Assembly (NCBI GenBank): GCA_963754945.1
Contig: CAVWIG010000017.1
Location: forward strand, 192,001-256,000
Source of the DNA: Methanotrichaceae archaeon
Lineage (GTDB): Archaea; Halobacteriota; Methanosarcinia; Methanotrichales; Methanotrichaceae
DNA length: 64,000 bases
Direction of reading: 5' to 3'
A program made the translations under genes and the position numbers. Of this stretch, positions 9,496 to 59,652 are shown one piece after another (the stretch's first letter is position 1; each line of letters starts with the position of its first letter). The notes below the pieces were generated by a model. The model was given only the letters and a program-made list of their open reading frames with translations. It had not been told where the DNA came from and made no database searches.

Positions 9496-9786
9496 CGAAA
9501 AATGAGAAGAAATTTTATCAAAGGAAATCCATCAAAACCTACGGATATCCAATATTCTGTGCCACATAGAGGACATGTATATTCTACAAAACTGTCACAA
9601 AGTTTACTCACAAATTTATTGTTTTATCAATATTTAAAATATAATTTATTATTATTCATAGATTCCTACTCGTCACATCTGTCTTGAAGAAAGTTTTTTA
9701 TAGAAGTATGTTACATTAATATTAGTTCTGACTTAATATAAGTATCTTTGATACTGATCTAAGTCGGGCATATGGGAGTTAAAAAA

Positions 9787-10209
9787 ATGGATAGAAGTCT
9801 TAGGCTTGAAGCGATCAAGAATACCGCTACGTTGAAGGCTGCTCTCGATGAACAAAACAAGTCGTTCACTCCAATTGGGGCGGGTACAAATAAAGGAAGC
9901 CTCGAAAATGGAGTACTTGCTCCCTCGACGAATCAGCAATCGATCATCGTTGATGGCAAAGCAGGAACGGTTGGCGTAATCCCCGGTATCGAGAACATAT
10001 GGTTAATCGTCAGCCCGGGAATTTTTTACGATTTCACCGTTTGGGTTCGCGGTGCGTGTCCTAAAGGAAAATGGGATAACCATATGACATTCACGGATCG
10101 ATCGGGAGATACATATCATTTGAGGATATATGATACGACCTTAAAGGACCACTATGTGAACTACCACAGTCCAGATGGAGCCATCACAAGGATAACATGG
10201 GATATTTAA
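9787..10209 (+). CDS. Hypothetical protein (beta-rich, about 140 aa) in an AT-rich island
   Basis: Isolated ORF with GGAG upstream and AT-rich flanks; alternative start at 9772. Confidence 0.65.
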   Translation: MDRSLRLEAIKNTATLKAALDEQNKSFTPIGAGTNKGSLENGVLAPSTNQQSIIVDGKAGTVGVIPGIENIWLIVSPGIFYDFTVWVRGACPKGKWDNHMTFTDRSGDTYHLRIYDTTLKDHYVNYHSPDGAITRITWDI

Positions 10210-10814
10210 ATTTTCATTAAAACGATCCGACGATAATCATTCTTATTTTTTGTAAGGCTATCTATGGGATTTGGCTGAACTATTAAAGAATTAGATTGAG
10301 GCAAAATAATCAGATATTTAGCTCTTAACCGACTCTTGGAGATTAAGAAAGAATAAGAGTGCACGGTAAACTTGAAAAGCCATCGACACATTTATAGTCG
10401 TTAACCAACTATATAATTATACCTAATTTCAATGCCAAGAATACTTCTATCCAATTTGCAGCAAAACTAAGTTTGATGAGAACTTGTAAAATTTCTCTCA
10501 ATCAGATTTTCAAATGATCCACATTACGAATAAATTTGCATGAAACGACTCTCTTAAATGCTATCTCAGATGAATTCAATCGGGTCAAATTGGGCGAATA
10601 AGGTGGTAGAAAATTTAATTAATTTCCATAATCTCAGCATGTCGCCTAGCAATTTCGCCTTGTGGGACGGAAAATCTATCCAGGAACCCCTTAGCATTGT
10701 CCTCTGTCATGGCCGGCCTTACCAATCTTTGACTGCTATTCTCGCCGACTTTATGAAATCATTCCTTCCAGTGGAGTAAAGGATAATAGAGTAGTTCAAA
10801 AGCCCCCGTCAAGC

Positions 10815-11005
10815 TTCTCCCCTAAGACCAACACAATATCCAGTGCCAATCTCGGAAGCAGTCCTTTCGGGGGTCCACTCCCACTTGTGGCATATCTAAT
10901 CACGTAGGGTATATCCAATCCTGGAGCTAACGGAAGCCTTTGCTTCATATGAGCCCTGCACAGCGGAAGCTTAGGCACATCTCCTTGAATAGTTCATCTC
11001 ATGCA
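10815..11005 (-). pseudogene. Remnant resembling the C-terminus of a family B (PolB2-type) DNA polymerase
   Basis: Joined frames read MNYSRRCA*ASAVQ-AHMKQRLPLAPGLDIPYVIR-KWE-DP-ERTASE, which resembles the C-terminus of Methanomicrobia PolB2 as recalled. Contains a stop and frameshifts. Confidence 0.5.
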
Positions 11006-11102
11006 CAGACCATGGGAGTGTTTCGGGAATGCCTAAGCACGAAGTACTTGGCAGCATATCACTATTACTACAAGTATTCTTAGTCCGACTATCCCTAGCC
11101 TA

Positions 11103-44631: not shown

Positions 44632-45225
44632 GTGGGATTGATCATTACAAGACTGCTTGGAGTATTGGCGGTTATCAGCCTTCTAATGGCTCCTGTCCTT
44701 TCAGAGCAAATTGCAAAGACCTGTACATGCACGTCCATCGGTTGTCCCAGCCCAAAGGTAATGAGCTGTTGCGAGGGTAAACAGGATAGCGCCTGCTTTT
44801 CTCAAGAATGTCACTGCCCAACCCTTGTATCGCCATCCGGCAGCACGGATGTCTATGATCCTGGCTATTCTTACTTTGGGGAGAGCAGTTCACGGACATA
44901 CGGCAGACAGGGTCCGTCGACAGGCAGTTCCGGCTCAGTTGGTGAGAGCAGGTATTCGGGCCCAGCTCCAGACAATTCTAACAATGGGCCGCCGGATCTG
45001 GATGTAGTGGAATATCTTCCGCCCTCCGCAAGGCACGTATTCGATGTCCTGGCAACGAATGGCCCTCTGACACAAAAAGACCTGATCAGCAAGACCGATC
45101 TTCCTCCCAGAACTGTCAGGTACGCCCTGAACAGGCTAAAGGGTGAGGACATCCTCGAAGAACGCTTCTGTTTTCAAGATGCGCGTCAGAGCCTTTACAG
45201 CTTGGCCATGACCGGCCTGAAGTGA
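44632..45225 (+). CDS. Hydrophobic leader + Cys-rich domain + winged-helix (MarR-like) domain
   Basis: N-terminal hydrophobic helix, 8 Cys, S/G linker, then LPPSARHVFDVL...LTQKDL...LPPRTVRYAL.RL...F.FQDARQSLY.L. Confidence 0.8.
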   Translation: MGLIITRLLGVLAVISLLMAPVLSEQIAKTCTCTSIGCPSPKVMSCCEGKQDSACFSQECHCPTLVSPSGSTDVYDPGYSYFGESSSRTYGRQGPSTGSSGSVGESRYSGPAPDNSNNGPPDLDVVEYLPPSARHVFDVLATNGPLTQKDLISKTDLPPRTVRYALNRLKGEDILEERFCFQDARQSLYSLAMTGLK

Positions 45226-51087: not shown

Positions 51088-51158
51088 GCCGGGGTGACTG
51101 ACCGGTTAAGTGCGCGGCTGCAGACCGCGAGAATTGGGTTCGACTCCCAACCCCGGCC
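51088..51158 (+). tRNA. tRNA-Cys(GCA)-like cloverleaf with atypical C73, abutting cysS
   Basis: Acceptor GCCGGGG/CCCCGGC, D stem ACT/AGT, anticodon stem CGCGG/CCGCG with loop CT-GCA-GA, T arm TTGGG-TTCGACT-CCCAA. Followed by C, T, then ATG. Confidence 0.85.
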
Positions 51159-51159
51159 T

Positions 51160-52617
51160 ATGATTATCTACAACACCATGAGCGGCAAGAAAGAGCCGTT
51201 TCAGCCAATTCACAAGAATCGCGTCAACATATTCGTCTGCGGACCAACTGTTTACGACAACTCTCACATCGGACACGCCAGGACCTACATAGCATTCGAT
51301 GTCGTCGCTCGCTACCTCAAGTACAAGGGCTTTTCCGTGTTTTATCTTCAGAACATCACCGATGTTGACGATAAGATCATACAGAGGGCTTCGGAGCTAG
51401 GCATTGAGCCGGACGCTTTGGCGCGCAAGTTTGAGCGAAGGTACTTGGAGGATATGCAGGCGTTGGGCGTGACAAATGTCAACCTCTACGCCAGGGCGAC
51501 AGAGCACATTCCCGAGATCATCAGCCAGATTGAGCGGCTCGTGGAGTTGGGTTTTGCTTACGAGACGGAGACTGGTGTTTACTTCGACGAATCTAGATTC
51601 GAGGACTTCGGGAAGCTGTCGCATCAGACTTTTGAGGAGGTTGCGCGCCACAGGATAGAGCCCGATCCGACCAAGAGGAACCCGGGAGATTTCTCTTTAT
51701 GGAAGAAACGGGAAGACGGGGCTAAGGTAACCTGGGATTCGTCTTGGGGAAGAGGACGACCAGGATGGCACATCGAGGACACGGCCATCACGGAGACCTA
51801 TTTCGGACCTCAGTACGATATCCATGGCGGAGCAATGGACCTAATATTCCCCCACCACGAGGCAGAGATCGCTCAGATGGAGGCGACGTCAGGAAAAAAG
51901 CCACTGGTTAGGGCTTGGATGCACACCGGCTTTCTCAACGTCAAGGGCGAGAAGATGTCTAAGTCCCTGGGAAATTTCATGACCATAAGGGAAATGCTGG
52001 AGAGATGCGATGCCGAAGCTTTCAGATTGTTCGTCCTCCTTGCTCACTACCGATCACCAATTGATTTTTCCGAAGAGGTGCTGGAGCAGTCTCGAAAGAG
52101 CCTTGAAAGAATTCGCCATCTGATCAAGGTCATCGAAGAACAATTAGAAACGCCCGGCGAGATCTCGGAAAGCGAAGGTGTCGACCCAATACTGATCAAG
52201 GCAAGAGCTGAGTTCTTGGATGCGATGGACGATGATTTCAATACGCCTTACGCGCTTCGAACCGTATTCGACCTGGTGAGGGATATAAACCGCAGAATAA
52301 ACGAAAAAAACGTATCGAAGGAGACTTTAAAGGATACGAAACTGCTGCTGGAGGAGTTCGGCAGGGTCTTCGGAATCAGCTTTTCTTCCGGGTCAGAAAA
52401 ATCCATAGGAAAAGAAGAAGACATGGCTCGCGACCTGATCGAGCTGCTTATCGAAATAAGGCAGAAGCTCCGCGAAAAAAAGGACTGGCAGCTCGCCGAT
52501 GAGATACGTAACAGGATGAAGGAATTGAACGTCGTGTTGGAGGATGCCGAAGGAGGTGGCAAATATACACTTCGAGGAGAGAATTGCCTTAATCGCAAAA
52601 CTTATAACCTTCAATAA
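51160..52617 (+). CDS. cysS: Cysteine--tRNA ligase
   Basis: MIIYNTMSGKKE, CGPTVY, HIGH, NITDVDDKII, GRPGWHIE, FPHHEAE and KMSKS. True start is ATG 51160; the track start 51094 lies inside the tRNA. Confidence 0.96.
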   Translation: MIIYNTMSGKKEPFQPIHKNRVNIFVCGPTVYDNSHIGHARTYIAFDVVARYLKYKGFSVFYLQNITDVDDKIIQRASELGIEPDALARKFERRYLEDMQALGVTNVNLYARATEHIPEIISQIERLVELGFAYETETGVYFDESRFEDFGKLSHQTFEEVARHRIEPDPTKRNPGDFSLWKKREDGAKVTWDSSWGRGRPGWHIEDTAITETYFGPQYDIHGGAMDLIFPHHEAEIAQMEATSGKKPLVRAWMHTGFLNVKGEKMSKSLGNFMTIREMLERCDAEAFRLFVLLAHYRSPIDFSEEVLEQSRKSLERIRHLIKVIEEQLETPGEISESEGVDPILIKARAEFLDAMDDDFNTPYALRTVFDLVRDINRRINEKNVSKETLKDTKLLLEEFGRVFGISFSSGSEKSIGKEEDMARDLIELLIEIRQKLREKKDWQLADEIRNRMKELNVVLEDAEGGGKYTLRGENCLNRKTYNLQ

Positions 52618-52642
52618 CAAGTGTTAATTCGGTGAGCTTAAA

Positions 52643-52925
52643 ATGAGGGATCTATTTTGCCAACCCCGGATATGAACAGCCGAGTTCGAAGATAGAGCGC
52701 CTGCCGCCATCAGCAAAGCTTGTTCTTAAAGTGCTGGAGTCAGGCAGCCTTTTAACGCAGAAGGACATAATAAGAAAGACGTATCTTCCGGCAAGAACCG
52801 TAAGGTACGCTTTGAGCAGACTTAAAGACGAGGACCTTCTTCAGGAACGCTTCTATTTCCAGGATGCGCGCCAGAGCCTCTATGGGCTGAATGCCCAAGC
52901 CCTGGAGGTGACGACGACCGCATAA
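52643..52925 (+). CDS. Winged-helix (MarR-like) regulator requiring a +1 frameshift at TTT-TGC
   Basis: RBS GGTGAG and ATG 52643 open a 10-aa ORF. The +1 frame, bounded by TGA 52644, encodes ...KIERLPPSAKLVLKVL...RTVRYAL...DARQSLY, paralogous to the C-terminus of 44632-45225. Confidence 0.8.
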
Positions 52926-54208
52926 ATTATTTTCTAATTATTATGTATAAAGTTATCAGGTGATGGGGATTGCAATCACGGATCGTTGAACAGTTCAATT
53001 GGATATTCCCGTGCTGATGCTGCCTGGCCAGGTTGGTTTGCCTGGTATGGGTTCTTCTTCTCCGCTGCCACCTTCCACATTTCGGGAGGCTTTAGTTTGG
53101 GCGTACTGATAAAGGAATTCGAGGGATAAACGACTGTGCTATTTTGGGAGACCTAAGAGGCAAGGAGCACCAATATGGCACGCCTCCTGGATGATAGAAT
53201 TCAAGATGCGCAACGTGTGCCTGGGCAGAAAGCTGAGAAGAGCCTTTTGTAGCGCCGTGAAAGGCTATGTGTCGTAATAAGGAGGGAGGCAAAAGTCTTG
53301 GTGTAGGAGGGAGAAAAGAGGTGTATCGACTTTTGCCTATTACTAATACGACTATTGCCGAAATATAAGGTTTTCGCTCCAGGGTAGTGAGGTGTAGTCT
53401 CATACAATAAATGACCGAAATAGAGAAAATCGAATACTCAAGCGGGGCCAACGCCGATCCACAGCGCCCTTGTAGGAGGAACCTGTCAGTGTGCAGGCCT
53501 GACTCCGCTCAGAGTTCGATCATATGCCTGGGCTAGAAGGCGGCACGGCACTGGAATTTCACACAGCGCCCATTTCATAGGGACCCCAAGGCATCGTGAG
53601 ATGTGGGTCTCGTGCTCGCCTTCCGCCTTCGGCTTGTGACGCGTCATGCCCCGGCCGTGTATTGACGCCAAGCTGTCGGCAGATTGCTACGCAAGTTACG
53701 GCGTGCAACTTTCCTCTGCTGAATATCAGCTTAACAGGCTCGTAGCCGAATGCAGTGCCACGAAGGCATGCATCTCCTGGAACAAGGACGCGATCCACCC
53801 TAGAAGCGACCGCATGCTCACCCATCGATAGGGCAAACATCCAAATCTCCTTGCCAAACAGAGCATTATCAGATACGTTAAGCCCACGGCACACCCGCCA
53901 CCCTTTGCATGGCGCGCCAAATTAACTATATAATCGTTATACATATTTGTAGTTGTCGCTCGGAAACCAGCCTTTGGGTAAGTGCATAAACTGTTATTCG
54001 GAAGGAATAGCGAGCTTAAGGCAGGCGCTGGGTCAAACACAACCACGGCGTGGTGGCCGATTCAATCGGACGCCTCTCCTAGTTGGCAGGCGTGGGCCCA
54101 CAATAGATTTGATATTGCAGAAAGATAATATTGTGGACAGCGCAAACCTATGAATGACTAGCAATTGCTCCGATTCGATATCAGCAATCTTGGAATGGTG
54201 GGCGAGAT

Positions 54209-54664
54209 ATGATCGAAAATAAGACACAGCTTTTGGCTGATTTGGCCTACATTGGCTCGAAAGTTCAAGCAAAGACCAGCGTGTACCTGATCGCTGGTGC
54301 GGCCCTTCTGTGGCATGGCTTGAAAGATGTCACTAAGGATATCGATATCTGTTGCTCATATGAAGAAGCTGACAGTATTGTATCGGAACTCAGGCTGTCT
54401 GGCAGGATGGAGTCGGTCACTGGTATCAACGAAATTCACTTCCTCCGGTTATTCCTGAAATCATTCACGCTTCAGATCTTCATCAACGAGGTGTGGATGG
54501 GCGATGAATACCAGCTTCTGGAAGCAGCCCACTGTGATTCACTCACATTTGGTGGTGTGGCCTTCTTGATTCCCGATATCAAAACTCTCATTATGATCCA
54601 GGATAGGCACATCCAAGCACTGTTCAACGATTGGAAGAAACTGAAAGGAGAGGTATCTGTCTGA
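54209..54664 (+). CDS. Nucleotidyltransferase-like protein (DUF6036/AbiEii-like)
   Basis: VYLIAGAALL.HGL...TKDIDI matches the Pol-beta-superfamily hG[GA]...DxD signature. Confidence 0.65.
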   Translation: MIENKTQLLADLAYIGSKVQAKTSVYLIAGAALLWHGLKDVTKDIDICCSYEEADSIVSELRLSGRMESVTGINEIHFLRLFLKSFTLQIFINEVWMGDEYQLLEAAHCDSLTFGGVAFLIPDIKTLIMIQDRHIQALFNDWKKLKGEVSV

Positions 54665-54719
54665 ATTGTGATGAGGATATCAGCCTTTAGAGATTACTAA
54701 TCTAAAGAGGGCAATGGCC

Positions 54720-54986
54720 TTATCTTTCTCCTTTTAAAACACCCCATCCACGTTCTGTAAGCCGGATTTGATTCATGCCATTTTTGAGAGATTGCCCTTC
54801 TTCATAAGTACCAGATTGTGTATTTATGAAACCCCATCTTTCCAAGCGTGTTAAGCGATCTCCAAATTCCGTTTCATCAAGCCCGAGGGCTCTATTGACA
54901 TTGACCGGATTGACCCATTTGGTCAGGGATCTTTCAAGGATCGATTCGAGGATCTTCCTATCTGTTCCAACTATGTAATCAATCAT
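54720..54986 (-). CDS. Small winged-helix-like protein
   Basis: DRKILE.I...L.L....FGDRL..LE..GFI...LTERG pattern; GGAG RBS. Confidence 0.65.
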   Translation of the reverse strand: MIDYIVGTDRKILESILERSLTKWVNPVNVNRALGLDETEFGDRLTRLERWGFINTQSGTYEEGQSLKNGMNQIRLTERGWGVLKGER

Positions 54987-55393
54987 CTCTACTCCAATTT
55001 ATCCTAGCACGATGGATCTTCGCTGCGTATCTATCATACTAGCTAACAAATATCTATAATGATTGTTATTAACATATAAATACCATTCATAAGCTGAATG
55101 CGACCACCTCCGGCATGTTAAATGCCGACCGAATATTCTATTTGACGAGGGCAGGAAATCCTGGAGACCTTTCAATTCCCAACCTTCGTATGCAGAGGGA
55201 ATGCTCCAGAGGGCTGGTGGAGAAGACCTTCGTAAGGTACAATCTTATAATGCACTTATAAGTCGCTACGCCTAGTTACAGGACATTACATATATATAGA
55301 TTATAATACTTATCGATTTGGGAACCAAAAGCTTTTTATTTAAAAATATCGTATTAAGAGAATCGCAGAATAAGTTTAAATGGAGAATTTAAA

Positions 55394-55540
55394 ATGCAAA
55401 ATAAAAAAGATAAGAGAACAAAGGCTGATGTAGGGAAGACAGCGGCATCTGGAATCGCAGATGCAAAGAAAGGGGTAGCGGATGTGGGGAAGAAGGGAGC
55501 ACATGGAAAAACTGATGGAAAGAAAGGGTGGAAAAAGTAG
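55394..55540 (+). CDS. Putative 48-aa Lys/Gly-rich basic small protein (not in ORF track)
   Basis: GGAG RBS; MQNKKDKRTKADVGKTAASGIADAKKGVADVGKKGAHGKTDGKKGWKK*; AT-rich TATA region upstream. Confidence 0.55.
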   Translation: MQNKKDKRTKADVGKTAASGIADAKKGVADVGKKGAHGKTDGKKGWKK

Positions 55541-55704
55541 GAAAAAAAGTAGGAACCTGCTATTCCCAAATGATTAGTTGTCCAAGCAGCCGGCCTGCAC
55601 CTAGTCGAGCGGTAGCAGTGATGATTGAATGATGCCACCTTCCTGTCTCATTTTTGAATTAACGGCTCGCCTGCCTTTCGACCCTGTCCTTTTCGCACCA
55701 TTCC

Positions 55705-56469
55705 TTAATGATCATAGTAGATTTGGGGCTGATTCCTCATCATGTACCCGAACCCTAATCCCACTAACAGGCCCGTCAGATGTGCAGCATGAGCTATGCT
55801 GTCTCCTGTTCCCATCATCATGAAGTCCATGAAGGCAAAGAGAACGACTGCATACTGAATCCTCAAGGGAATTATAAAGAATAGCAGTACTCGAATTTCA
55901 GGGGCAATTATGGCCAGACATCCCATGACACCGAAGAGGGCTCCGCTTGCGCCTAGAAGGGTTCCTGTGGACACCAGCATCTGTCCCAGAGCAGCAGCCA
56001 ACCCCGAGAACATGTATATCTCAAGGAAACGGGTCTCGCCAACGCGCCTCTCCAGTTCTACGCCAAAGAAGAAGAGGAACAACATGTTCCAGAAGAGGTG
56101 GTCGAAGTTGGCATGGACGAACATGTGAGTAATGAGCGTCCAGGGCCTCTGCATAACATATGCCGGGTTCAGAGCGAGATAGCCGTAAACGAACCCCGGA
56201 GCAATTAGACTTAAGAGGGATACAAACACGCAAATGGCCAGTATAGCCATTGAGTAGCTCACGGGAAGACCGGTCGGAATCTTGCTCTTCCAGCTTCGGT
56301 TCTCCCAAGGTGCTGGGTCGTTCCAGTCATCTTTGTGCCTGAAATCATCCCTGCCGCCTATTGAGGCAAGAATTGGCCCAAGAATCAATGATCTTGTATA
56401 CCTGAGACGGTCGTTTAGGCTTTTGCCAGTATAATTTTTGCTAATATTATTTATCTCCTCACTTGCCAT
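55705..56469 (-). CDS. Rhomboid-family intramembrane serine protease
   Basis: PWTLITHMFVH...HLFWNM, GASGA catalytic Ser and AHAAHLTG catalytic His. Confidence 0.93.
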   Translation of the reverse strand: MASEEINNISKNYTGKSLNDRLRYTRSLILGPILASIGGRDDFRHKDDWNDPAPWENRSWKSKIPTGLPVSYSMAILAICVFVSLLSLIAPGFVYGYLALNPAYVMQRPWTLITHMFVHANFDHLFWNMLFLFFFGVELERRVGETRFLEIYMFSGLAAALGQMLVSTGTLLGASGALFGVMGCLAIIAPEIRVLLFFIIPLRIQYAVVLFAFMDFMMMGTGDSIAHAAHLTGLLVGLGFGYMMRNQPQIYYDH

Positions 56470-56600
56470 GATCCCTCAAAATGTTTCTTGAAACACCATT
56501 GTTGAGTATATTATTGAGTACATTACAGCGTGCATAGAATATGCTATCAATAAAGTTCGCCAATGCATTATAATTTATCCATTTATCTCTTACTATCGAA

Positions 56601-57086
56601 CTATTCAGTCACATACTGGCCGTCGCGCAGCACTATGACGTAATCCGCTGAGTTCCTGAGGGCCACTGAAAAGCCTGGCTCGGCTCCGAAGATTATGGTC
56701 TCCTTGCCGTGCTCCATGGCTTTCATCAGAACAGGTTTTAAGTCAGCGTCTCTGGTGACCATGGCGATGGTATCTATGACTGGATTATAGATCATGTCGA
56801 TGCCCTCGACTGCCATCCTGACGTCAACGTCACTGGTGCATATGACAGGTTCGAACCCCTGGTTCTCCACTGCCTCAACGAGTTTCTCAGATGCGTACTG
56901 GTTCAGGAACACCTTGCCCATCTTGATGTCGCCGTAATCCTTAAGGATGTCCCTAATCTCCTCAAGATCCATCTGGAACTCCTTGCGAAGCATGTTTGGA
57001 CCATCCACTAGAAGACCTATCTTCTTTCTGCCTCTTTCCTTCTTGGAGCCAAGATAATTCATGATGTGTTCGAAGTGTATCGCCAT
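56601..57086 (-). CDS. TIGR00288-family NYN domain protein
   Basis: LLVDGPNMLRKEF, DVDVRMAVE, TRDADL.P and FSVALRNSAD. Confidence 0.9.
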   Translation of the reverse strand: MAIHFEHIMNYLGSKKERGRKKIGLLVDGPNMLRKEFQMDLEEIRDILKDYGDIKMGKVFLNQYASEKLVEAVENQGFEPVICTSDVDVRMAVEGIDMIYNPVIDTIAMVTRDADLKPVLMKAMEHGKETIIFGAEPGFSVALRNSADYVIVLRDGQYVTE

Positions 57087-57198
57087 CAGATCACATAATC
57101 CTTGAGATAACCCCAGACTGTATCATATAAAAATCTATCTCATATATTATTTTATCTATCTTATACTCCGTCTACTCTTGTGTGTCCGTGCTCTCTTG

Positions 57199-57969
57199 TC
57201 ACGGAATTTTGTAGATCTTCTTTATGTTCTTGGTGGTGGCAGAAGCGACCTCAGATGGCGATAGTCCTTTTATCTTGGCGATTAGCCTTACCGATTCGAG
57301 AACATTCATAGGTTCGTTCCTCCCTCGTTTTGGGGCAAGGAAAGGGCTGTCAGTCTCCACGAGAAGGTGATCTAGAGGGACGTTTCTAGCCAGCACTTGA
57401 TGCTGACCGGAGCGGCACACAACTGTTGCTAAAGAGATGTAGAAGCCTCGGTCCACTGCCTGCTTCATTGTATCCATGCTGCCGCCGTAACAGTGAAACA
57501 CGACCTTGTCCAGGTCCTTTACCATATCCAGGGCCTGCTGCTCGGCATCCCTTGAGTGGATAACCAGCGGAAGATCGACGGATTTGGCTAGGTCAATTAC
57601 CTTCTGAAAGACCTGAACCTGATGGTTCCTGGCCGCTTCATCTTTACACCTGTAATGATCCAGGCCCGCCTCCCCTATGCCAACGGCCTGACCGGCATTC
57701 TCTTTGATAAAATCAAGCTGAGATTCCAGGTCCTTGTTGCTTGTCCCTTCCAGGGAGTTGGGTGAAAGCCCAAGAGTCGCCCGCATGAAGTCGTGCTTTT
57801 TCGCCAACTCCAGGCTCTTCCTGTTTGTGGCAATGTCGACGCCGGAGTTGATCATCATCACGACGCCCGCTTCTCGGGCCCTATTCATCACCGCGTCCCT
57901 GTCTTTATCGAAATGCTTGAAATCGAGGTGACAGTGGGAATCTATTACCCCATCTCCGAACTCGTTCAA
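57199..57969 (-). CDS. tatD: TatD-family hydrolase
   Basis: IDSHCHLD, IGEAGLD, IHSRDA, FHC and ETDSPFL; TTG start overlaps the leuA stop. Confidence 0.92.
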   Translation of the reverse strand: MNEFGDGVIDSHCHLDFKHFDKDRDAVMNRAREAGVVMMINSGVDIATNRKSLELAKKHDFMRATLGLSPNSLEGTSNKDLESQLDFIKENAGQAVGIGEAGLDHYRCKDEAARNHQVQVFQKVIDLAKSVDLPLVIHSRDAEQQALDMVKDLDKVVFHCYGGSMDTMKQAVDRGFYISLATVVCRSGQHQVLARNVPLDHLLVETDSPFLAPKRGRNEPMNVLESVRLIAKIKGLSPSEVASATTKNIKKIYKIP

Positions 57970-59526
57970 TTGTGGTTTTCCTCCAAAAGCATCAATCTGT
58001 TTATGGCGCTGACAAGGGCCTCAACCGAGGCCATAACTATGTCCTCGCGTGCCGATCGGGCACTTACTTTCCTTCCGCGGTCGTCCTCGACCCCTATCAC
58101 TACCTCAGCCAGGGCGTCTGAACCTCCGGATATGGCCTCTATCCTGAAATCAGAGAGGCGTATGGACGCGTCGCCGTCCATGAGTCCCTGTACTGCCTTT
58201 AAAGCGGCATCGACAGGTCCAACGCCGATGCTGGCCAGGACCTTCTCGTGACCACGCACTACGGCCTTAACAGTGGCTGTGGGGGTTATAATGTTCCCGG
58301 TCATCACTGAGACCTCTTTGAGCACCATAGCCTGGCTGGCCTTGGCCACCTCTCCAATGACCACGTCGGCTATGGTCTGAAGGTCGGCATCGGTGATCTG
58401 CTTTCCCTTGTCTCCCAGCTCTTTTATCCTATCCAGGATCTCATGGAGCTGCTCATCCGTTGGCCTGTAGCCAGCATCCTCGAGGACCTTCTTAACAGCG
58501 TGCCGGCCTGTGTGCTTTCCAAGGACTATCCTTCTTCTGTGGCCAACCATCTCAGGAGTCATTATGCCCGGCTCAAAGGTCTTGCTGTTTTCGAGGATTC
58601 CGTGGCTATGAATTCCGCTCTCGTGAGAGAAGGCGTTTTCACCGACTATGGGGGCAGTTATTGGTATTTTCGCTCCTGTTAACCGCTCAACAAGCCTTGC
58701 AGTCTCTACCAGGTACTCCGTTTTTATGCTCGTGGTTGCACCGTAAATTGAGTGCAGGCTCATCACAGTCTCTGCCAAATTTGCATTGCCAGCCCGCTCC
58801 CCCAGACCGTTGACGGTAACCTGGATCTCTCTCGCACCGGCCTCCACTGCGGAAAGGCTGTTGGCAACAGCGAGGCCGAAGTCGTTATGGCAGTGGACAT
58901 CCACGACCATGTCAACGTACTCGCAGATCCCCTTCACAAAGGCGTAGAAGGCCGAAGGGACAGCAACTCCCACGGTGTCTGGGATGTTGATGATGTCGCA
59001 GTGGACCTCCTCGACTGCCTTGAAAATTCTGTGGAGGAACTCCGGGGATGTCCTGGTGGCGTCCATGGCAGAGAAGAGGCATGTCCTTCCCTGATCCTTC
59101 ACGTATTCCACTGTCTCAACTGCCCCGGCCACTATCTCGTCGTGGCTCTTCTTTATCGTGTGGGCTATCTGGATGTCTGACGTTGGCACGAAGACGTGGA
59201 CGAGACCAACATCAGCATCGAGACAGGCTTGTGCGTCTGCCTTGACAATTCTGGAAAGTCCGCAGACCTGGGCAGAGAGGCCAGCTCGGGCAATTTGCCG
59301 GACGCTCTCGAACTCGCCCTTGGAAGACACAGGAAAACCAGCCTCGATGATGTTCACACCGAGCTTATCGAGCTGCCTGGCAATAGCAAGTTTCTTTTCA
59401 GGGGTGAGTGAAACACCCGGGGTCTGCTCTCCATCGCGGAGAGTCGTGTCAAAAATTCTAACTCTCTCGCCGCGAAGATCTCTTACATCGTAGAAGACGA
59501 TCCCTCATAGAGGCTTCTTGCGTCAT
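57966..59526 (-). CDS. leuA: 2-isopropylmalate synthase (LeuA/CimA family) needing a +1 frameshift at CTT-CTA near the start
   Basis: [47 protein letters not shown] and C-terminal regulatory domain GVGPVDA. There is no ATG/GTG/TTG between TGA 59507-05 and GTG 59357; ATGs at 59526 and 59508 are one base out of frame. Confidence 0.85.
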
Positions 59527-59549
59527 GTTTCATTGAGTGAGCCTCCGTT

Positions 59550-59557
59550 CTATAAAA
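59550..59557 (-). promoter_or_regulatory. TATA box for leuA, predicting a near-leaderless transcript
   Basis: TTTTATAG lies about 24 nt upstream of ATG 59526. Confidence 0.5.
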
Positions 59558-59652
59558 CTCTTGCCCCGAGGCCGCAATGCTACAAGGAATATTCAGCAAA
59601 GAATTCAGTAATTAATCTGGCGAAAAAAGAATTATGCAGGCGAGATTCACCT

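Follow-up and report, generated by a model that had tools for sequence, protein, structure and literature searches.

The question raised by this locus is how two genes can be translated when neither has a usable start codon in its own frame. We investigated a 64,000-nucleotide stretch of the genome of a Methanotrichaceae archaeon (hereafter the window), in which leuA, encoding 2-isopropylmalate synthase, and a small gene encoding a winged-helix-turn-helix (wHTH) regulator, situated 3' of cysS, both lack an in-frame start ahead of their conserved sequence. A preliminary description of the window had read the two 5' ends as an amino-acid-sensing +1 ribosomal frameshift cassette, and the comparisons presented here support that interpretation at the level of sequence. 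We consider it probable that a modular programmed +1 frameshift site, of the type known from prfB (the gene of the bacterial release factor RF2), lies at the 5' end of leuA, of cimA (a third gene, outside the window) and of the wHTH regulator gene, and that it is triggered by scarcity of the cognate aminoacyl-transfer RNA (aminoacyl-tRNA). We infer the shift of the ribosome, its place (an NUU codon with the sensor codon in the A site) and its response to starvation.

The leuA site lies on the minus strand and comprises the following parts, the zero frame being that of the leader ATG and the long frame the +1 frame of the enzyme (ORF, open reading frame; SD, Shine-Dalgarno; nt, nucleotides).

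59551..59562, minus strand: TATA/BRE-like box AAGAGTTTTATA, a putative promoter element, 24 nt upstream of the leader ATG.
59458..59526, minus strand: leuA leader (zero-frame) ORF, ATG at 59526, 22 sense codons, stop TAG at 59460-59458; the expected product if no shift occurs.
59499..59506, minus strand: SD-like putative stimulator GAGGGATC of leuA, pairing with the 3' tail of the genome's own 16S ribosomal RNA (rRNA) at -9.9 kcal/mol.
59494..59496, minus strand: proposed P-site slip codon CTT of the leuA zero frame, which would re-pair with TTC in the +1 frame.
59491..59493, minus strand: proposed A-site sensor codon CTA (Leu), zero-frame codon 5 of leuA.
57966..59504, minus strand: leuA long (+1) frame, 2-isopropylmalate synthase, 512 codons from GGG to the stop.

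In the favoured model, the +1-frame decoding of leuA would begin at TAC 59492-59490. The product of the long frame is identified as LeuA by the NCBIfam model NF002085 (713.9 bits, cutoff 517) and by TIGR02090 (496.8 bits, cutoff 484.75), including the DTTLRDGEQ region. The corresponding parts of the regulator gene lie on the plus strand.

52631..52636, plus strand: SD sequence GGTGAG of the regulator leader, a genuine one, 6 nt before the ATG.
52643..52675, plus strand: regulator leader (zero-frame) ORF, ATG AGG GAT CTA TTT TGC ... TGA, 10 sense codons.
52645..52652, plus strand: SD-like putative stimulator GAGGGATC of the regulator, -9.9 kcal/mol, invariant in 32/32 copies.
52655..52657, plus strand: proposed P-site slip codon TTT (TTT_T) of the regulator, zero-frame codon 4.
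52658..52660, plus strand: proposed A-site sensor codon TGC (Cys) of the regulator, TGC or TGT in all copies.
52647..52925, plus strand: regulator long (+1) frame, a small winged-helix DNA-binding protein, 92 codons plus the stop.

The wHTH of this protein is recognised by the Pfam model HTH_24 (E 7e-5, 22.7 bits vs a cutoff of 21.9); the MarR_2 match falls below its cutoff and the MsvR match is weak (21.8 bits).

In this genome, leuA and the 92-aa regulator are both entered from an ATG that is one base out of frame. The 10-mer ATGAGGGATC has exactly two matches in the window, at 52643-52652 (+) and at 59508-59499 (-), and in both genes the TGA that it contains closes the long frame directly 5' of GGG ATC, as seen in the translations of 57966-59507 and 52644-52928; after this TGA, leuA reads GGG ATC GTC TTC TAC on the minus strand. 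The earliest canonical in-frame starts lie far inside the genes, namely GTG 59357, past the catalytic DTTLRDGEQ motif of leuA, and GTG 52731, within the wHTH of the regulator. The preliminary description was correct on the missing in-frame starts, on the identical 10-mer set one base out of frame, on its closing TGA and on the codon readings ATG AGG GAT CGT CTT CTA (leuA) and ATG AGG GAT CTA TTT TGC (regulator). Its assignment of the leuA leader start to the ATG of the 10-mer did not hold: the actual conserved ATG is 59526, 22 nt upstream of GGG and with a TATA-like box before it.

As a word, the 10-mer is not enriched. The two matches in the window compare with 0.35 expected, a count of at least 2 is reached in 6 of 100 shuffles, and the 2.97-Mb genome contains 5 copies, which by arithmetic is about the chance level. 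The signal above chance is its position and its conservation; its recurrence was therefore dropped as evidence, and position and orthologue conservation were used instead. The same 5 genomic copies and 6 shuffles are what would speak for an assembly or sequencing indel, or for decaying pseudogenes that share the 10-mer by chance. However, the same frame structure is found across dozens of independently assembled genomes, single-contig ones included, the open frames are retained at full length (500-530 codons), and DNA contigs of two sequencing runs match the window. The reads were taken as Logan contigs of relatives, from two DNA and two RNA runs, a form in which rare variants could drop out. 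The contig of one DNA run is identical over 59449-59556, and that of the other spans 59307-59642 with a sole gap at 59623. An assembly indel, which had been put forward as the finding that would overturn the first interpretation, was thus rejected on the orthologue 5' ends and the DNA contigs, and we regard the chance of an artefact or of pseudogenes as negligible.

No indel is listed within 59490-59526 in the four runs of relatives, and only one of the RNA runs has depth over the extra base. This result bears also on a correction of the frame at the RNA level, in which transcriptional slippage or editing would remove one base and translation would then proceed in the ordinary way. Such a mechanism would be helped by the U-runs of 4-6 present at the site in some orthologues (GCT TTT TAC, GTT TTT TAC), but leuA of this genome has only TCTTCT there, and we judge frame correction in the RNA very improbable.

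To judge from the names of near-identical proteins, the organism is a Methanothrix. Of its relatives, 41 of 41 have leuA, and the conservation of the leuA site was investigated in 81 genomes that represent 15 families of the phylum; at E<=1e-40, several of the phylum's families yielded no match. The cassette layout is found at the leuA 5' end in 76 of these 81 genomes, belonging to 12 families, while the other 5 differ by an ordinary in-frame start and a different N-terminus. Between the upstream long-frame stop and the cassette, 58 of the 76 have no ATG, GTG or TTG. At the level of the class, the zero-frame ATG stands 22 nt ahead of GGG in 34 of 37 leuA genes, with a TATA-like hexamer at most 45 nt upstream of it in 35 of 37. 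The spacing between the TATA-like sequence and the ATG has its mode at 24 nt (12/37) and is 22-25 nt in 21/37, which suggests that the leuA messenger RNA (mRNA) is leaderless or nearly so. Within Methanotrichaceae, leader codons 2-6 (T/S/A-Q-E-x-S) show synonymous variation in the ATG frame, and coding in the long frame resumes directly after the cassette, where GAT GTA AGA in one genus and GAC GTT CGT in another both encode D V R. Zero-frame codon 4 of the 76 genomes is TTT in 45, CTT in 29 and GTT in 2, the proposed slip site having the form YUU_Y in 74, and zero-frame codon 5 is a Leu codon in every one of them (TTA 33, CTA 27, CTT 14, CTG 2). A hairpin of leuA in this genome (AUCGU...ACGAU), judged by eye, is not kept in orthologues and was discarded.

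The cassette regulator was found in 34 copies in 30 genomes. The 32 distinct copies that were aligned come from Methanotrichaceae, from a Methanosarcinaceae-like family and from one more family, and the other two from a Methanocella-like genome and a further genome. All 32 present GGTGA or GGAG, then about 6-9 nt, then ATG A GGG ATC, with TGA closing the long frame. The exact 10-mer opens these 32 copies and the 2 others, while the leuA orthologues keep its 8-mer core and the register. An equivalent of the short zero-frame ORF is present in all regulator copies. Each of the 17 distinct cassette variants has CTT or TTT as its fourth zero-frame codon, and the proposed slip site has the form YUU_Y in all regulators. 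The sensor is a Cys codon (TGC/TGT) in the 32 aligned copies and in the 2 from elsewhere, and the exchange of TGC and TGT is silent in the zero frame and exchanges Ala and Val in the long frame. One regulator orthologue, from a small-genome family, has an ordinary start.

The third cassette gene lies outside the window, on contig C41 (~9500-11013, minus strand). It is a paralogue of 503 codons with an Ile sensor codon, and its 5' end reads SD-N4-ATG AAT, then GCG T GGG ATC GCT TTA TC. Its JGI cluster carries the name D-/(R)-citramalate synthase, NCBI calls it in some cases (R)-citramalate synthase and in others 2-isopropylmalate synthase, and the NCBIfam models place it in a joint LeuA/CimA/homocitrate subfamily in which CimA is not separated from LeuA. 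The cassette is present in this cimA-annotated paralogue in 38 genomes, with Ile (ATC/ATT) as the sensor in all of them (31/31 aligned rows, plus 5, 2 and 1, minus one duplicate). Methanosarcinaceae-like cimA begins with ATG, GTG or CTG followed by A GGG ATT RYA TTA TTC and has no in-frame start. Three Methanosarcinaceae-like cimA 5' regions also carry, as a separate feature, a perfect hairpin (GCTGCTAC TAA GTAGCAGAC) about 10 nt before the GTG-A-GGG start.

Taking the first G of GGG as +1, the three families share one module, with G-N-GGG-AU-Y at -1 to +6 (GAGGGAUC here), a loose spacer at +7/+8, always UU at +10/+11, and family-specific bases at +12 to +14. Read in the leader frame, it presents a SD-like purine stretch, one spacer codon, NUU and then the sensor codon, whose amino acid depends on the family, being Leu for leuA (76/76), Ile for cimA (38/38) and Cys for the regulator (34/34). 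The preliminary description had claimed for the two genes of the window a prfB-like register, i.e. a SD-like stretch, one codon, a CUU-type codon and then a sense codon in the A-site position, and had expected an out-of-frame ATG, the SD-like stretch, YTT and the cognate codon at orthologous 5' ends. The register is fixed in all three families, and these elements are kept across the class and the phylum. The match that it drew between the A-site codon and the amino acid of the pathway, for Leu and for Cys, is strengthened by cimA with Ile.

The module was then considered base by base. Substitutions at +14 leave the leader peptide unaltered but swap Y/F/C in the protein of leuA, S/F/L in that of cimA and A/V in the regulator. 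At +8, the codons CGT, CGC and CGA are likewise synonymous for the leader, while a long-frame reading would give Val, Ala and Asp. Where the long frame of leuA contains Phe-Phe (14 genomes), TTC is used for the first Phe in 14/14; with TTT, the sensor would be a Phe codon. An alignment of 30 cimA sequences has 33 invariant degenerate columns. Three of these belong to the cassette, where Gly is always GGG (30/30), Leu is always TTA (30/30) and Ile is ATC or ATT; each of the 30 columns elsewhere draws on two or more codons, and the 8 further columns of invariant Leu draw on 3-6. In the same way, the regulator cassette codons GGG, ATC and TTT are each found in 32/32 copies, while none of the 23 control columns is limited to a single codon. 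Phe is encoded mostly by TTC at its two invariant positions outside the cassette (29/32 and 27/32), and by TTT within it (32/32). By these degeneracy controls, the cassette is constrained at the nucleotide level.

The 3' end of the 16S rRNA was taken from the genome itself (...GGAUCACCUCCU / ...GAUCACCUCCU / ...CUGGAUCACCUCCU). GAGG-GAUC pairs with it with one bulged A, as had been proposed from the archaeal 16S 3' end, and the predicted duplex amounts to -9.9 kcal/mol at both window sites, whereas only 2.4% of 10,000 random intragenic 12-mers of the genome reach -9 kcal/mol or lower. The mean duplex energies are -9.9 kcal/mol for the regulator, -8.0 for leuA and -6.2 for cimA, and the gap between GAUY and NUU is fixed at 2 nt in all three gene families. 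Positions +1 to +6 of leuA are GGGATC in 58 of 80 rows, and the variants are still purine-rich and complementary to the anti-SD. One family has GUG GUC (AGGUGGUC) in place of GGG AUC, nearer to a canonical SD and with the register unchanged, and GAG AUU and GGU AUC are found in other families. Since GGG is replaceable while the register is kept, what is conserved is not a Gly codon but a purine-rich stretch that complements the anti-SD and keeps a constant distance from NUU. A special Gly-tRNA, or four-base decoding of NGGG, was rejected on the same replacements. The genome contains the G34 tRNAs tRNA-Leu(GAG), tRNA-Phe(GAA) and tRNA-Ile(GAU), and none of the 37 tRNAs found in it was reported as unusual (genome 88% complete; anticodon-loop sizes not inspected). 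CTA and TTA are the two rarest Leu codons of the genome (9.7% and 7.2%), and Cys usage, 12.2 per 1000 codons, is the lowest of six amino acids tabulated.

The mechanism that we propose from these features would proceed as follows. Translation would start at a normal zero-frame codon, which in leuA follows a TATA box at leaderless distance and in the regulator follows a true SD. A few codons on, the SD-like stretch would lie just behind the ribosome, free to pair with the 16S 3' end, and one codon further NUU would occupy the P site, read via G34:U wobble by tRNA-Leu(GAG), tRNA-Phe(GAA) or tRNA-Ile(GAU). The A site would then hold a codon of the gene's own amino acid, i.e. Leu for LeuA, Ile for CimA and Cys for the regulator. 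With the aminoacyl-tRNA plentiful, the leader would be read to its nearby stop and only a peptide of 10-22 residues would be made (10 for the regulator, 22 for leuA). With the aminoacyl-tRNA scarce, the strained P-site tRNA would re-pair one base downstream (YUU_Y to UUY) and the full protein would be obtained; after the +1 move, CUU_C or UUU_C would become UUC with a Watson-Crick third pair.

Several observations weigh against this reading. The support for the shift is comparative only. The RNA contigs end at 59514 and 59504, adapter letters coming next, with no depth beyond 59516, and stop short of the leuA leader ATG at 59526; these ends, either a true 5' end or 5' under-coverage of a leaderless mRNA, are a weak hint and were not used as evidence. 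In leuA, a long-frame F-Y by itself forces a zero-frame Leu codon, so that the 60 Phe-Tyr cases carry no independent weight and the sensor count is informative only for the 14 F-F and 2 F-C genomes. The duplex energies of cimA are modest, as its mean indicates, and the CimA assignment, drawn from database names and general pathway knowledge, is putative. In Methanotrichaceae cimA (UUU_A), the slip from UUU to UUA would leave a G:A mismatch at the wobble position. Methanosarcinaceae-like cimA, with AUU at the proposed P site (AUU_A), would re-pair poorly in +1 and is thus left uncovered by the simple slip model; its frame change would take either a no-slip route, by out-of-frame A-site binding, or a different shift site.

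A further point of this kind is that the long-frame peptide G-I-x-F/L-x is fairly conserved too, which also fits a shift directly before GGG. The +1 frameshift would in that case not be at NUU, or not be amino-acid-sensing: it would occur after NNG, GGG-AUY being read as Gly-Ile, or it would be constitutive. Out-of-frame binding of Gly-tRNA, possibly aided by an empty E site if NNG is the start codon, would bring it about, and the downstream bases would be a 3' stimulator or by-products of dual coding. G-N-GGG-AUY is indeed the most invariant part of the cassette, and the long-frame G-I-[VAID]-[FL]-x is common to leuA, cimA and the regulator. Where an in-frame start exists, the protein begins M-R/W-G-I-V-F-F, so that GIVF is translated there. 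Such a shift would also accommodate the Methanosarcinaceae-like cimA, which is without a slippery YUU, and the start codon adjoins the extra base in the regulators, in Methanocella-like leuA and in Methanosarcinaceae-like cimA. Nevertheless, GUG, GAG or GGU can replace GGG while the purine-rich anti-SD character and the NUU register stay, and the codon that precedes the extra base takes many forms (GCG, GTG, ATG, CTG, CAG, AGA, GCA, TCG, AAG), with no common slip or special-tRNA mechanism apparent. The exclusive TTA/TTT/TTC at +10 to +12 and the family-specific sensor codon would, in addition, be left unexplained. We regard this reading, with an early or a non-sensing shift, as rather unlikely.

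The remaining points that count against an NUU slip concern in-frame starts. An in-frame ATG or TTG precedes the cassette by two codons in leuA of one family (7/7 genomes) and in 24 of the 26 cimA rows from Methanotrichaceae, the second ATG of these cimA genes overlapping the leader start as ATGAATG. Judged from these sequences, frameshifting is non-obligatory in this leuA family and in most Methanotrichaceae cimA, and the leader may there be an overlapping upstream ORF (uORF) or a second, inducible route to the protein.

The same starts speak for a view without any frameshift, in which the zero-frame ORF would be a Leu-, Ile- or Cys-sensitive overlapping uORF and the main ORF would initiate by itself, at ATG/TTG or at non-canonical CUG, AUC or AUU. 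In its favour are also the in-frame CTG of many Methanotrichaceae leuA, the use of CTG or ATC by gene callers, and the nearly invariant AUY at +4 to +6. However, TGA stands directly before GGG in this genome and in many others and makes the CTG unusable, +4 to +6 is GUC in one family, and AUC lies 0-3 nt past the purine stretch and about 13 nt past the real SD of the regulator, probably a poor geometry for initiation. In all these families the upstream ATG stays at a distance of 3n+1, which a frameshift needs and a uORF does not. In one genus, moreover, a change of AAT to AAC, silent in the leader frame, has removed the in-frame ATG of cimA, and the cassette is retained. We consider this view without a frameshift distinctly unlikely.

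The slip at NUU would resemble several known systems. The bacterial prfB +1 site has an internal SD, a one-codon spacer, a slippery CUU and a slowly decoded A-site codon. The cassette has the same order of elements, with an internal SD-like stretch, a one-codon spacer, a proposed P-site codon of the NUU form and a putatively slow A-site codon, and in both the level of the A-site decoder would set the yield. It differs from prfB by its A-site codon, which is a sense codon (Leu, Ile, Cys) instead of UGA, so that it would sense an aminoacyl-tRNA where prfB senses a release factor. It is, furthermore, archaeal, is situated within the first 5-12 codons and is one module for three gene families, and its logic would be induction on metabolite shortage, whereas that of prfB is autoregulation by its own product. 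It is thus a site that would work like prfB but is not a member of that class, its A-site codon not being the stop read by its own product.

In bacterial leu and ilv attenuation, a leader ORF contains codons of the end product, and the speed of the ribosome on them sets the expression of the biosynthetic genes. The leader ORF of the cassette is also short and contains codons of the pathway amino acid, but these are one or two sensor codons and not a run, the leader overlaps the 5' end of the enzyme gene, and the output would be a frame change within the run of the same ribosome and not a transcription read-through. Since the leader overlaps the 5' end of the coding sequence, there is no room for a separate terminator/antiterminator attenuator. 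The yeast Ty sites depend on a constitutively rare tRNA and, unlike the cassette, have no SD-like stimulator.

With yeast Ty1/Ty3 and with E. coli hungry-codon frameshifting, the latter treated in a 2016 review (PMC5009743), the cassette would have in common a +1 shift promoted by a slowly decoded A-site sense codon and a wobble-paired P-site tRNA. Hungry-codon frameshifting has so far been known as an error or a laboratory phenomenon, which would set the cassette apart, and the same review states that no trans-frame proteins made specifically under starvation are known (PMC5009743). The antizyme +1 frameshift, as described in two reviews (PMC8211752, PMC5009743), is likewise a metabolite sensor and effector in one; it differs in being eukaryotic, in shifting at a stop codon, in sensing polyamines and in its other stimulators. 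For archaea, a 2021 review gives the -1 frameshift of Saccharolobus solfataricus fucA1 as the only programmed one in a cellular gene that experiments support, and lists no +1 example from such a gene (PMC8211752). The fucA1 shift takes place by -1 on an A-AAA-AAT heptamer in mid-gene, has no known sensing role and is confined to a single lineage. In the portion of the literature searched, which did not extend to supplements and subscription-only papers, no frameshift in archaeal leuA or cimA and no amino-acid-sensing frameshift was described. In public annotations, these genes are given CTG or ATC as start codons, or have N-termini truncated past the catalytic motif, and the site has thus gone unrecognised by annotation pipelines.

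What is new here would be the use of a SD-stimulated +1 frameshift for sensing an amino acid; both this role and the mechanism are well motivated but deduced from comparison. A wider claim can be made, for which we see about an even chance: the cassette would be a portable amino-acid sensor of this phylum, in which shortage of X-tRNA leads, through a +1 frameshift, to the first enzyme of the pathway of X (LeuA, CimA) or to a regulator (Cys). It would then be an archaeal counterpart of attenuation and of the T-box, and the first natural use of a hungry codon, re-targetable by one codon. If confirmed, the cassette would supply both a cellular archaeal +1 case and a starvation-specific use of hungry codons, in a field, the translational matching of amino-acid biosynthesis to supply in archaea, that is largely uncharted. 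It would also explain the mis-annotation of leuA, cimA and the regulators in public methanogen genomes, correct the N-termini used for enzyme work, and give synthetic biology in methanogens a compact sensor that can be programmed by its codon. Methanosarcina carries the same cassette before leuA, cimA and the regulator, and the proposal is thus directly testable there.

Further cassettes were searched for by patterns, which would miss any whose SD-like part has diverged. The whole genome was scanned twice for GGGATY..YTT, or a looser version of it, at the start of long frames closed upstream, and only leuA, the regulator and cimA were returned. A scan for the motif ahead of start-less amino-acid genes had been suggested earlier, and cimA is the gene that these scans added. 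A radical S-adenosylmethionine (radical-SAM) gene on contig C24 (115095-116648, minus strand) has a zero-frame ATG and 'AGG T GGG ATC TTT TTG', and was rejected on its in-frame ATG 10 codons downstream. The pattern RTGAGGGATYNNNTT has matches in 104 of 121 genomes of the class. Among the matches listed, 20 that were neither the regulator nor a known cimA were inspected; 2 of them were cimA, and the other 18 consisted of unremarkable in-frame ORFs, short frames due to chance and a repeat element. In five complete genomes, the pattern GNGGGATCGNYTT gave 15 matches vs 0 for the reversed control, and the 12 inspected comprised 2 regulators of a further family, 1 cimA and 9 ordinary or chance matches. 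In a Methanosarcina-like genome, an intergenic ATG T GGG ATC GAT TTT TAG (~3064064, minus strand) has an amber codon at the sensor position, a +1 frame of 24 codons and no gene within about 1.4 kb, and is probably due to chance. A repeated intergenic element that starts with GTGAGGGATTRTATTT, with a conserved stretch of ~40 nt before it, was seen in two genomes of one genus and is unrelated to the cassette.

Upstream of the regulator gene, the window contains the following features.

51088..51158, plus strand: tRNA-Cys (GCA) gene, found by ARAGORN, ending one base before the likely cysS ATG.
51160..52617, plus strand: cysS, cysteine--tRNA ligase, TIGR00435 501 bits, the match starting from residue 23 of the ORF that begins with GTG at 51094.
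52612..52629, no strand assigned: imperfect palindrome AATAACA AG TGTTAATT, a candidate operator upstream of the regulator SD.

The placing of cysS before the regulator in the preliminary description is confirmed by this TIGR00435 match (about 51160-52617). The regulator gene is situated 26 nt 3' of cysS, and tRNA-Cys, cysS and the regulator form one tight cluster. The linkage of cysS and the regulator is found in three genera, this one and two others of the family, with two more loci present as fragments. Other regulator copies adjoin a gene for a Cys/Met pyridoxal-phosphate (PLP) enzyme and a transporter permease gene (BPD_transp_1). A role of the regulator connected with cysteine would fit these surroundings. 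The 37 tRNAs found in the genome include 3 tRNA-Cys genes. Paralogues of the regulator of 197-240 aa (window positions 44632-45225, and orthologues) have a signal-peptide-like N-terminus and a Cys-rich region and are without the cassette. Additionally, a near-perfect palindrome, GTTAACAATTGTTAAT, occupies the same place in many regulator orthologues and is a candidate operator for autoregulation.

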